From assembly GCA_951406725.2 (NCBI GenBank), contig OX597815.1, positions 190,340,001-190,404,000 of the forward strand: DNA of 64,000 nucleotides. The letters run 5' to 3'. Shown here piece by piece: positions 23,801 to 29,800 of the stretch. Every line of letters starts with the position of its first letter. The first letter of the stretch is position 1. The DNA comes from Octopus vulgaris. Its lineage: Eukaryota. Made by a program: the position numbers.

Positions 23801-26800
23801 CCTCTGTGTGTGTGTGTGCGTGTGTGTGTTTGTGTGTGTGTGTTTGTATGTGTGTGTGTGTTAGTGTGTATGTGCGTGTGTGTGTGTGTGTGTATACTCA
23901 TATCGTTATAAAACTATAAAGCACTCCTGCAAGCCGAGACGAAGAAACACAATTAATTCCTTCCTTACACGTTCTCGCCCGCACGGTTGTTTAGTGATAT
24001 TTCGGGGCCGATAAATTAAGTACCAGTTACGCACTGGGGTCGATATAATCGACTGGCCCCCTTCCTCCCCACAAAATTTCTGGCCTTGTGCCTAGAGTAG
24101 AAAAGATTACCATTATTGTTAAGCTTATAAAATATTATTATTCACAAAAATTGTCACTCGTCACCGCTTCTCAAATTATCGCAGTTGGTATTTATTTCAT
24201 CGACCCCGAAAGGACGAAAACAAAGTCGAGCTCGAAAGGATGAAAGGTGAAGTCGACCTTGGCGGTATTTGAACTCAGAACATAGAGACGGACGAAATTG
24301 CTGTTAAGCATTTTGTCCCGCGTGCTCACGATGCTGCCAGCTTGCCGCCTTACAAAAGACTATTATAATAAGAATTTCAAATATTGACACAAAGCCAGCA
24401 GTTTCGATGGACGGGATAAGTCGGTTACATCGACGCCGGTGCTCAACTGGTAACTAATTTGATCGACACAAAAAGGGTGAACGGCGAAGTCGACCTCGGT
24501 GGAATTTGAACTCAGAACACAAAGTCAGACGGAATGCTGCTAAGCTAACGATTCTGCCAGCTCGTCACTTTAATAGTGTCTATAACAGTGGTTTTCAACC
24601 AGGGTTCCGCCAGTACAGTCCTGGGGTCCCGCAAGAAGTTACAAAAATGCTAAAATCGACTGTAATTTTTAATTCTCCTGTGCAGATATGTGTGCATAAG
24701 ACAATTAAATTATTGCACAGGGGTTCCTCGAGCCAGTGGAATGTTTCCTTGGGGTTCCACTCTAGCAAAAAGGTTGAAAAGCACTGGTCTATAATAATCC
24801 TTTCTACTATAGGCACAATGCCTGAAATTTTGGGGGAAGGGGGCTAGTCGATTACATCGACCCCAGTGTCTATAATAATGATCCTCAAACTAAAAGCGAG
24901 AAATCACTGCTTCATTTTTTTGTAGCTCAAGGAGTCTCTACCTGAAAATAAAACCTGCTAGAAATAGCAGCAAAACTACCTGTAAATCAAAATAATCGTC
25001 TTGGCAGACGAAATACCTATTTCTTTACTACCCACAAGAGGCTAAACACAGAGAGGACATACAAACGGATTAAGTCGATTACATCGACTTCAGAGCGTAA
25101 CTGGTACTTAATTTATCGACCCCGAAAGGATGAAAGGCAAAGCTGACCTCGGCGGAATTTGAACTCAAAACGCAACGGCAGACGAAATACTGCTAAGCAT
25201 TTCGCCTGGCGCGCTAACGCTTCTGCCAGCTCGCCGCCTTCGTTCACCAACCTCTAATGGTGGCAGTACGTACTTGGCACTGGAGGCAAACGCGCGCGCA
25301 CACACAAACACGTTGAAATACACATTCAGAGAGAGAGTGAGAGAGAGAGAAAGAGAGAGAGAGAGAAAAGAGAGAGAGAGAGAGATTATAATTTATTGAG
25401 CACGATTGGCGTGAACTCTTTCCCTCTACTCATATATGATACATTATATATTTCTTTACTACCCACAGGGGGCTAAACACAGAGGGGACAAACAAGGACA
25501 TACAAAGAGTTAAAGTGATTCCATCGACCCCAGTGCGTAACTGGTACTTAATTTATCGACCCTGAAAGGATGAAAGGCAAAGTCGATCTCGGCGGAATTT
25601 GAACTCAGAACGTAACGGCAGACGAAATACGGCTTCGCATTTCGCCCGGCGTGCTACCGTTTCTGCCAGCTCGCCGCCTTCAATATATGATTGATTGATT
25701 CTAGTTTCAGCTCATGAGCTGTGGCCATGCTGGGGCACCGCCATTTAGATACATTATATGATACATTATATTTTATCTTTTACCTGTTTTAGTGATTAGA
25801 CTGCGGCCATGCTGGGGCACCTCTTTCTGGAATTTTAGTCGAACGACTCGACCCCGCTGCTTATTTTCTTAAAGCGTGGTACTTATTCTTATCGGTTTCT
25901 CGGGTTCTATAGCATATGCATTTCCCACCCCTGGACAGAACGCCGACCCGTTGCACTGTTATTCATTTTTGCCAGGTGAGTGAACAGGAACAAGGTGAAA
26001 AGAAGTGTTTTTGCTCAAGAAGATAACGCATCGCCCGATACTGGATTCGAAACTGAAATCGTATGATCATGAGTACAACACCCCCTAACCAGTAAACCAC
26101 GCGCCTCCATCTTTTAAACAGCAGTTAGAGTATATTTTCAGGATCTTTTCGGTTTGAACGGCAGTTTTTTTCTAGCGGTGTCATAGGAAATTGTCACCCA
26201 TAATTATGACTCTAGTATCGATCTATTGCATTTCAATCTGTTTTAGGGTTAGTTAGGGTTAGGGTTTGGGTGAAGGGTATCTTTTTTTTCTTCACAAAGG
26301 TAAATAAACCCAATCTGTTTATTAAACGAGAGTCATATTCGTACGGCACAGAATATTTCTTTTTACCTCAATAGACATCAGTGATTGGTTGAAATTGCAG
26401 AAAAAAACACAACAAATATCTTATAAACTATAGAATTTTCTCAATAAAGCCAAGAGAAAAAGATGTTTTAAAAACACATTCTACCTGTATACGAAGTTTA
26501 AAATGTTTTAGTTACCTAGAAATTATGGTAAAAACTGCCGTTCAAACAGAAAAGATCCAAGTGTTTTTGCTCAAGAAGATAACGTATCGCCCGATACTGG
26601 ATTCGAAACTGAAATCGTATGGCCTAACCAGTAAACCACGCGCCCCCATCTTTTAAACAGCAGTTAGAGTATATTTTCAGGATCTTTTCGGTTTCAACGG
26701 CAGTTTTTTCTAGCGGTGTCATAGGAAATTGTCACCCATAATTATGACCCTAGTATCGATCTATTGCATTTCAATCTGTTTTAGAGTTAGTTAGGGTTTG

Positions 26801-29800
26801 GGGGAAGGGTATCTTTTTTTCTTCACAAAGGTAAATAAACCCAATCTGTTTATTAAACGAGGGACATATTCGTACGTTACAGAATGTTTTTTTTTTTTTA
26901 CCTCAATAGACATCAGTGATTAGTTGAAATTGCAGAAATTGAAGAAGAAAAAAAGCAACAAATATCTTACAAACTATAGAATTTTCTCAATAAAGCCAAG
27001 AGAAAAAGATGTTTTAAAGGGATAAACACATTCTACCAGTATACGAAGTTTAAAATGTTTTAGTTACCTAGAAATTATGTTAAAAACTGTCGTTCAAACC
27101 GAAAAGATCCAAGTGTTTTTGCTCAAGAAGATAACGTATCGCCCCGATACTAGATTCGAAAGTGAAATCGTATGATCAGAATACAACACCCCTAACCAGT
27201 GAGCCACGCGCCTCCATTTTTTAAACAGCAGTTAGAGTAATATGTTCATTATTGGAAACTCATTTTCTAATGTGACATGTTTTCTTTAATTCAGATTTTC
27301 AACGCGTTATACAAAAGTAGCGATGCTGAAAGTGCATGTAAGCAAGAGTAAAGGTTAACAAGTGCCAACGATCTCGTGATGTTTTTATACTTTTCGTCAG
27401 TCATTAGTTGCAATGTAAATAACATGAAACAACCATAAACGTCAGTCGAAGCCATAATGCTGAAGAGAACGGTTCAAACACAGTACCAAAGTTCAAATCC
27501 TTCCATTTATATAATTAGGAGAGACAAACAGACAGACATTATTGTCAATGATTTTGACGCATTATTTTCTAACACTGAGTGGGGAATGAATGGGATGATA
27601 GAAAGTTCGAATGGTGCTATTGGTCTTTTGTGAGCTGTAACAAATTTTCTGATAAATTAAAGAATGCGAACAAAAGAATGGATGCTACAAAACATACATT
27701 ATCCTAATTAAAACATTTTTTCTCGATTTTTGATCAACAAATGTTTTCATAGCACTTTCCAGATCTATCGCTTTTGCAACATTATATTCAACTGAGGAAA
27801 TTGCCATAGAATTTATTCAGTCTTGTCGACCGTAAATGTGTCTTTATAAGCTTTAGCTAACTAAAGCTTTTCTCTCTCATGGCCACAGTTAAAAATTATT
27901 ATAAACATTGTTTTTAACGCATCCCACAGATTTGACATGACATCCTGTAACTTAATATTGTTGATGAATCTAACAGCTTCTGTCGGAAGCTTAACGTCTC
28001 CAGGAAATAATTCTTCTGCAATATCTAGTTCAGGGAGGAGGTCACATCCGTTAATATCACCTAGGCAACATTTTAAAATAAGCTTCATCCCATTCAAGGA
28101 TTTTTCACATTTTGCTTCGTATTTTATTTCATTTGTTATTTTCACATTTTCTGCTTTTGAATTTGAAAGAATGAACGTGATGCTTTCTAAGAGCATGTGG
28201 CATCGTTACGTGACTGCCTAAGTTCCCAGTATCATCAGCAGACACTGGGGCAGACACAACTGTTGTCGGGATGTGTTTAGATCTATGAGTTGACTTACAT
28301 ACATCCCTGCTTCTCACATAAGAAATTGAGAGGGCTAGAATAACTTTTATGGTAATTTGATAGGACAATTTTATTTTTATTTATAATGACTATTCTTGTC
28401 GTTATTTAGCATCTATATTGGTCCATCAACCCGCTGTTAATTTATTTATTTATAAGAATAATGTATATTATTCATTGCATCCTTTGGATCTTTTCACTTT
28501 GACCGGCAGATTTTTAAAATAATTTCTTTGTAACAAAACACTTTTAAACTTCGTATACTGGTAGAATGTGTTACATAAAACATCTTTTTCTCTTGGCTTT
28601 CTTGAGAAAATTCTGTAGTTTATAGGCTATTTGTTGTTAAATTTCTTGCATTTCGGCAATTTCAACCAATCAATGACGTCTATTGAGGTGAATACAATTA
28701 CTGCTGTAGTTTGTCAACAACAATTTCCCATCCTTCTTTCAAGTTTGAGGGAAATGTGGCTTCTGTTTCAAGATCGTTAATTCGTGGAATGATTTATGTT
28801 TAAAGTGCCCGCTTTCTCGACGACAATCGAAAACAAATTGTCCAAAGTAACAAAAATATTTCTAGAAATCATTATATATATTTTTGGTAATTATTTTACT
28901 AGTTTCAATCCTTGCCCAGTGGCTATGCTTAGGACACTGTCTCCCAGCGTTTTATTTCAATCATATCAATCGCAGCGCATAGTTTAGTTTGGTACTTGAC
29001 TTACCTAATTGTATCGAATAGAGATCGATAAACTATAAACCAATAAATGTATGGTTCTGAGTTTGTAAGAAAGTATTGCTGAACAAATTGCCTTACGGCA
29101 GGGGCGCAGCCAGGTTCTAAAGTTAGTGGGAAGCGAATGCATAAAAAAAAAGGCATCGTTACACATATCAAACAATTTTGAACTCATTCGTTATACATTT
29201 TATAAAAGGCGCCAATTTTGAAAAATGTGCTCGGCGGAAGAGCGGACGCTTCTCTTGGTCCTCTGTTAGCTATGCCACTACTTTACGGCGGTATTTAGTT
29301 TCATTTTTTTATAGCTTGAGTTCAAATCCTCCTGAGATCAACTTTTATAGGATCTTTACCCTTTGAACGGCAGATCTAGAAATTAATTTTTGTAACTAAA
29401 CACTTTCAGACTTCGGACACTGGTAGAATGTGTCATATAAAACATTTTTTACTCTTAGTGTTGTTGAGAAAAGTTTATATTTTCAAAGTTATTTCGTGTT
29501 AAAGTTGTCGTATTTCGGTAATTTCAACCAATCAATGACGTGTATTCACCTGAATAAAATTACTACCGCCACGAGGGTAGCAACTTTGGGGAAGGGGATG
29601 AGTCGATTACATCGATCCTAGTGTTATTTTATCGACCCCCTAAAGGATGAAAGGTAAAGTCGACCTCGGCGGAATTTGAACTCAGAACGTAAAGACAGAC
29701 AAAATTTGGTGGGAGAAGGGTGCCAGTCGATTAAATCGACCCAGCACACAGCTGGTTCTTAATTTACCAAACCCGAATGGCTGAAAGGCAAAGTCGACCT

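Follow-up and report, generated by a model that had tools for sequence, protein, structure and literature searches.

Long flank repeats at the ends of a small transposon

We analyzed a 64,000-nucleotide stretch of the Octopus vulgaris genome (NCBI GenBank assembly GCA_951406725.2, contig OX597815.1, positions 190,340,001 to 190,404,000 of the forward strand), which is called the window below and in which all coordinates are counted from the first letter. It contains a short non-coding element with terminal inverted repeats (TIRs), here named D, that lies between direct repeats of host DNA ending at its own termini. Duplications of this kind, 122-138 bp long and abutting both termini, are present at two of the three independent full-length D loci. 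The best explanation, in which we place about even confidence, is that D inserted with a wide stagger between the two target strands and that unequal exchange between the duplicated host segments followed at one of the loci.

The first locus is an S-D-S-D-S array in which three copies of a host segment, S, alternate with two copies of D. The first host copy, S1 (26003-26140, 138 bp), is followed by D1 (26141-26558, plus strand), a 418-bp non-coding TIR element with 29-nt arms at 26141-26169 and 26530-26558, by the middle copy S2 (26559-26679), which carries a 17-bp internal deletion, by D2 (26680-27110, plus strand; 431 bp), and by the third host copy, S3 (27111-27248). A sequence-only reading of this DNA had described such an array, and our analysis confirms both the positions of the S copies and the exact coincidence of the S/D junctions with the D termini. 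Homology among the S copies sets in at the base after a right D terminus (26559 and 27111; 26003 in S1) and stops at the base before a left D terminus (26140 and 26679; 27248 in S3), the S3 endpoint allowing one indel and one mismatch in the last 12 nt. All pairs of S copies are recovered by blastn with E values of 1e-35 to 1e-49 (1e-49 for S1 versus S3 and 3e-45 for S1 versus S2). Neither an excision footprint nor an extra 8-bp copy is present at the outer junctions of the array: the 8 nt after S3 agree with the last 8 nt of S at 4/8 positions, and the 8 nt before S1 are unlike the first 8 nt of S. The 8-nt sequences on either side of D1, TATTTTCA on the left and AAGTGTTT on the right, are not the same either, so that D1 is without an 8-bp duplication.

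The array amounts to 2.25 units of ~552 bp. It is not reported by Tandem Repeats Finder (TRF), which detects an AG microsatellite alone, because its period exceeds the 500-bp limit of the program. We rejected a satellite or tandem-repeat family, given that the array is short, that D also occurs singly, and that S is not repeated elsewhere in the window, weak matches to the heads of short interspersed elements (SINEs) aside.

The second locus holds a single element. When 600 bp on each side of every D copy were compared, D4 (37283-37693, 411 bp, inverse orientation on the minus strand) proved to lie between two copies of a different host segment, T. The left copy, TL (37160-37281, 122 bp), is separated from D4 by one base (37282), and the right copy, TR (37694-37824, 131 bp), has its first base directly after the D4 terminus. 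TL and TR differ by 11/122 substitutions and by a single indel, of 9 bp, within an A-rich run; the sequences beyond their outer edges are unrelated, and, low-complexity matches aside, T occurs nowhere else in the window. S and T are themselves unrelated, having a single 12-mer in common, as do 4.3% of random segment pairs. A weak 5/7 resemblance to an 8-bp copy is seen after TR, and is not significant given the number of positions tried.

The third locus is of the ordinary kind. D3 (34881-35292, plus strand, 412 bp) is bordered by an 8-bp target-site duplication (TSD), TATCACTA on the left (34873-34880) and TATCACTG on the right (35293-35300), in which 7/8 positions are identical; of randomly chosen places in the window, 0.37% show agreement at 7/8 positions or better (0.0037). 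On the evidence of this one locus, the normal TSD of D would be 8 bp. A short TSD is thus found at one of the three loci, the other two having the 122-138-bp flank repeats and no 8-bp one. The earlier proposal that insertion of D had created a ~138-bp target duplication is borne out to the extent that a long duplication recurs at D4 with the unrelated segment T, but D3 shows that this length is not a fixed TSD of the family.

These three loci bear on a set of explanations in which the repeats are not insertion products at all, and which we consider very improbable. In its dimensions, S(138)-D(418)-S(138) is like a miniature long terminal repeat (LTR) element, and tandem arrays with shared LTRs take the form LTR-I-LTR-I-LTR. 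However, S and T are unrelated, and what is conserved is D, an element with inverted termini that is also present without long repeats. An LTR element or terminal-repeat retrotransposon in miniature (TRIM) was rejected on these grounds, the terminal direct repeats of the array and of D4 not being homologous and D3 having no long repeats. Insertion of D at a pre-existing S|S junction would have added an 8-bp duplication, which is absent, and had a D-S-D array decayed by excision of its outer D copies, an additional 8-bp copy would be expected at each outer edge, where none is seen. An assembly artefact, in the form of collapsed or duplicated haplotypes, is unlikely in view of copies that differ by 2.5-9% with indels and of a window without N.

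S combines ~32 bp of non-SINE sequence, upstream of the SINE start, with the head of a tRNA-like SINE on the minus strand. Its minus strand is weakly similar to two plus-strand tRNA-like SINE heads, at 35376-35478 (E 3.6e-6) and 58600-58711 (E 1e-5), which agrees with the earlier description of S as a minus-strand E-like SINE head plus flank. No closer SINE relative is present in the 64-kb window, and ARAGORN finds no tRNAs. A motif at the left edge of S, searched for in other SINE copies, occurs only in the three S copies and two E copies, plus one match with two mismatches. The left flank of the array, L (about 25900-26002), continues the minus-strand SINE body of S.

The D family in the window

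Searches with blastn and with an nhmmer profile find four full-length D copies, D1 to D4, and no others in the window. These copies are 411-431 bp long with 32-33% G+C, start with GGATC and finish with GATCC, and have inverted arms of 29 nt that are 93-97% complementary. A 24-nt terminus pattern, with at most three mismatches allowed, has 10 matches in the window versus none in 100 shuffles, and the 10 matches are the eight termini of the four full copies together with two termini of half-copies. The longest stop-free stretch in the D copies is 41-55 aa, and no open reading frame (ORF) of at least 120 aa overlaps any of them. This want of coding capacity argues that D is probably a non-autonomous TIR DNA transposon resembling the MITEs, or miniature inverted-repeat transposable elements; like these, it has conserved TIRs and is small, non-coding and dispersed in unrelated flanks (three independent full-length loci and two half-copies). 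No autonomous D element is present in the 64-kb window, and no transposase is detected by Pfam in the 22 of 48 window ORFs of at least 120 aa that were scanned, two proteins giving only sub-threshold matches. A protein search with the ORF at 22109-22582 gave no match. TSDs of 8 bp are characteristic of the hAT, P, Merlin and some Mutator-like superfamilies, and the D termini, with their GGATC start, are unlike the hAT-type motif.

The half-copies P1 (28486-28702, minus strand; profile positions 206-416) and P2 (29350-29564, minus strand) consist of the right ~215 bp of D alone and are 80.6% identical to each other. Both keep the right terminus of D, lack the second inverted terminus, and start internally at the same place (profile 206/207). 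Their source may have been a fractured master element or a chimeric D relative. No flanking repeat is found at either of these one-terminus copies when 600 bp per side are compared. All of the D-family loci, that is, the S array, P1, P2, D3 and D4, fall within 11,552 bp of the 64-kb window (26141-37693), a degree of clustering with p=0.0047 for the five loci and p=0.087 for the three full-length loci, which suggests local reinsertion or hopping.

Every D copy also carries one to three TTAGGG units, the telomere-type hexamer, at the same internal position (26243-26264, 26791-26796, 34980-34997 and 37581-37592). Rfam returns 16 weak matches on 24000-39000. All of them score under the gathering cut-off and lie outside S, D and T, and those resembling microRNAs (30429-30544) sit on a microsatellite.

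Divergence and order of events

S1 and S2 differ by 3/121 substitutions, S1 and S3 by 8/136 substitutions and four indel events, and S2 and S3 by 8/121 substitutions. For the elements, the corresponding values are 19/410 substitutions with six indel events for D1 and D2, 22/407 for D3 and D4, and 29/411 to 37/403 when D1 or D2 is compared with D3 or D4. The divergence of the flank repeats, 6-9%, is therefore comparable to the 5-9% between D copies, which fits duplications formed in the period of D mobility rather than recent ones. Their ages fit with activity of the D family. D1 and D2 have 11 variants in common against D3 and D4, which makes them sister copies. Moreover, D4, which has a long duplication, is nearer to D3, which has a short one (5.4%), than it is to D1 or D2 (7-9%), so the long duplication is not a subfamily trait.

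Variation among the S copies bears on how the array grew. S2 is like S3 at S position 27, the leftmost variable site, and like S1 at all other sites that vary between S1 and S3, a polarity that is expected if an unequal crossover took place near the left end of S and that depends on one site. The proposal that the S+D unit had been duplicated later by unequal crossover between S copies draws support from this polarity and from the sister relationship of D1 and D2, but its order of events, S-D-S first and the duplication of S+D second, is not resolved statistically: the private substitutions of S1, S2 and S3 number 1, 2 and 6 (star-tree test, p=0.13), and comparison of D1-D2 with S1-S3 divergence gives a Fisher p of 0.65.

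Comparison with other direct repeats

A direct-repeat self-comparison of the whole window served as the control, two scans for TIR pairs having been set aside since they were dominated by microsatellites and inverted SINE pairs. It yields 36 local direct-repeat pairs, eight of them low-copy. Four of these eight have gaps of 100-3000 bp, S and T being two of the four, and the other four are adjacent tandem duplications with gaps of 0-13 bp. The third gapped pair is a microsatellite-rich block (22860/23681). The fourth is a paralogous unit of 67 bp, which is interrupted in one copy by a foldback element and is not bordered by an element at both of its ends. Long, terminus-exact flank repeats are therefore specific to D within this window.

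Mechanistic interpretation

According to the accessible text of PMC9977147, the length of a TSD is equal to how far apart the two target strands are broken. In the explanation that we prefer, the ends of D would have been joined to two target strands about 125-140 bp apart, instead of 8 bp, and repair of the two long single-stranded gaps would have copied host DNA to both sides of the element, giving S-D-S at one locus and T-D4-T at the other. An S+D unit would then have been added by a later unequal exchange involving both S copies, most simply on sister chromatids, to produce S-D-S-D-S. This is the simplest model because new junctions arise only at D termini, the L-S1 and S3-R junctions being left ancestral. 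We infer that a transposase made the junctions and that one insertion event produced the wide spacing; since D3 records an ordinary 8-bp event, such spacing would represent a second mode of the same machinery rather than a fixed stagger. Any ruler for the spacing would be hypothetical, and it is speculation on our part that the DNA entering and leaving one nucleosome, which is close in space, could serve as one. That the D transposase regularly places its strand transfers about one nucleosome apart, giving a discrete class of 120-140-bp TSDs beside the 8-bp class, is a conjecture we would sooner doubt than accept. If true, D would be the first eukaryotic TIR transposon with recurrent TSDs of more than 100 bp.

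Several points weigh against wide-stagger insertion. Full-length loci that are independent number only three, and the window was selected on account of one of them; the D family also makes an 8-bp duplication. A transpososome with a fixed spacing of its active sites is not expected to yield 125-138 bp, and the duplication lengths are unequal (138 versus 122-131 bp), so that any ruler must be a loose one. The window has furnished neither an autonomous element nor a transposase (Pfam on 22/48 ORFs), and the order of the two proposed steps in the array is not resolved statistically, as described above. At the L|S1 junction, 50-75 bp of SINE body are missing relative to two E-type copies, which the model leaves unexplained; the gap may separate SINE subfamilies or may be a deletion associated with the event. 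In addition, the hexamer GAAAAG, which forms the 6 nt directly preceding S1 (within 25994-26002), recurs 4 nt inside the right terminus of D (p=0.0056, uncorrected and post hoc), and this recurrence is explained neither by wide-stagger insertion nor by any other model that we considered. Finally, hybrid-element insertion into a homologue would leave exactly the same structure.

This last possibility, a two-step alternative transposition involving hybrid elements or sister chromatids, is the strongest of the competing explanations, and we regard it as possible but less probable than insertion with a wide stagger. D would first insert in the normal way, generating an 8-bp duplication at an edge of S or T; the left end on one chromatid would then pair with the right end on the other, and the hybrid ends would reinsert ~130 bp away on the homologue, so that the adjacent DNA is duplicated on both sides of one D and a reciprocal deletion is formed. 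The ordinary duplication of the family is 8 bp, as at D3, and the clustering of the D loci within 11,552 bp (p=0.0047 for five loci, 0.087 for the three full-length ones) suggests local reinsertion. Duplications that end at transposon termini are, in the accessible text of PMC3744419, a documented signature of alternative transposition, and the same text cites hybrid element insertion of P elements as a source of flanking rearrangements. The maize survey reported there also includes direct repeats that are small and transposon-initiated, 147/148 and 116/118 bp long, in the size range of S and T. The frequency in maize is 3 of 7611 insertions, however, as against two of three D loci (PMC3744419, accessible text). 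A sister-chromatid target further predicts an 8-bp copy or footprint at the outer edge, and none is present at S, with only the weak 5/7 resemblance after TR, while two events that both landed 122-138 bp away would require a distance preference.

In Ac/Ds and other hAT elements of maize, reversed-ends transposition (RET) generates tandem direct duplications (PMC3744419, accessible text). As in D1/D2 with S, these duplications end at transposon termini, and repeats of 116-148 bp lie beside MITE-sized hAT elements that are ~95% identical, according to the same portion of that source. In the octopus array, D1+S2 and D2+S3 each start at a D terminus, as a RET product should. The maize D-S-D-S arrangement described in that portion has exactly two repeats, a first element with an 8-bp TSD, and a middle element with only one TSD copy, whereas the octopus array has a third S to the left of D1 and no 8-bp duplication at D1, where TATTTTCA and AAGTGTTT differ, and T-D4-T has a single element. 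The D loci consequently lack the structure of the maize RET product.

A further alternative, which we judge to be improbable, dispenses with transposase in making the duplication. An excised linear D would have been captured by end-joining at a break with ~130-nt 5' overhangs, produced by two nearby nicks on opposite strands and then filled in, or else a replication template switch would have occurred. In principle, the same duplication results from fill-in whenever the two strands are broken ~130 bp apart (PMC9977147, accessible text), excised cut-and-paste elements have exact ends, and the 6 nt that the left of S1 shares with the right end of D hint at a homology-guided step. Nevertheless, base-exact junctions are seen at two loci, with no filler added and no terminal base lost, and the recurrence at D, not at other low-copy intervals, points to the machinery of the element itself. 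A microhomology-mediated template switch through GAAAAG was rejected in particular, as it would delete the last 4 nt of D, which are retained at both D|S junctions.

Relation to known systems

Hybrid element insertion by P elements, accompanied by flanking duplications of widely ranging size, was reportedly described by Gray, Tanaka and Sved in 1996 and by Preston, Sved and Engels in 1996. In that system, one TIR element is reported to come to lie between direct duplications of adjacent host DNA that end exactly at its termini, and the ordinary duplication is 8 bp; D is alike in these respects, its 8-bp duplication being that of D3. P elements differ in requiring a prior insertion and a reaction between chromatids, whereas the D events both gave 122-138 bp and no reciprocal deletion is visible. 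D works like P elements, like the maize hAT duplications discussed above, and like two bacterial insertion sequences, IS1549 and IS1634. The latter make long direct repeats of variable length, 8-514 bp, against a family norm of 5-6 bp, and no model is proposed for them in the accessible part of PMC2266710; IS1634-family members with direct repeats of 4-9 bp are also described (PMC8024623). The likeness to D, so far as that part of PMC2266710 goes, is that these are DDE-type elements of a family that normally makes short repeats, in which certain members make long ones on insertion. They are, however, prokaryotic, autonomous and 1.5-2 kb long, and there is no evidence of a relationship to D.

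Target duplications of more than 100 bp that are made by insertion are known in eukaryotes from the R9 long interspersed elements (LINEs) of bdelloid rotifers, with a TSD of 126 bp that is in the size range of D, and from the Dualen LINEs of Chlamydomonas, with longer ones (PMC9977147, accessible text). Unlike D, these are retrotransposons that move by target-primed reverse transcription; D is non-coding, with 29-bp inverted termini and no poly-A. A long-TSD retrotransposon of the R9 or Dualen type was rejected for D because both of its ends lack poly-A and form 29-nt inverted termini, as was a retro-copied DNA transposon ('retro-DNA'), D having exact termini and no poly-A. A literature search, for which most subscription journals were outside reach, yielded no eukaryotic TIR element for which TSDs longer than 100 bp are reported as recurrent, and the accessible part of a paper on Octopus vulgaris repeats (PMC13282606) does not mention long TSDs. 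PMC6824096 and PMC7465170 do not bear on them.

Each DNA-transposon superfamily is taken to have its own fixed TSD length, which serves both to find and to classify elements. A TIR family that recurrently produces duplications longer than 100 bp could point to a novel way of capturing targets, in which strand transfer is loosely coupled or templated by chromatin; alternatively, it could mean that alternative transposition is far commoner in this genome than the 3/7611 seen in maize. Either way, small tandem duplications of host DNA would arise that can be expanded by unequal exchange, as in the S array. One long-read pipeline retains a putative TSD only if it is below 15 bp (PMC12312487, accessible text), and cases with long TSDs could therefore easily escape notice. 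Such elements would be missed, or given wrong boundaries, by annotation tools that are limited to short TSDs.

Repeats elsewhere in the window

The four adjacent tandem duplications are located at 11088-11545, 13165-13360, 33731-33901 and 57269-57467, with units of 79-230 bp and 77-95% identity. Two blocks of ~330 bp, at 22860-23186 and 23681-24003, are 91.6% identical and 494 bp apart, show microsatellite-like periods of 8-10 bp, and have no inverted repeats between them. At 43143-43643, a ~100-bp unit is present twice, one copy being split by a ~258-bp foldback element (43204-43461) with inverted arms of 39 and 51 nt, so that the pair consists of a filled and an empty paralogous site. The window as a whole is dense in SINE copies, with ~20 of one family by self-comparison depth, and in dinucleotide microsatellites, examples being found at 25018-25241 and 25449-25681.

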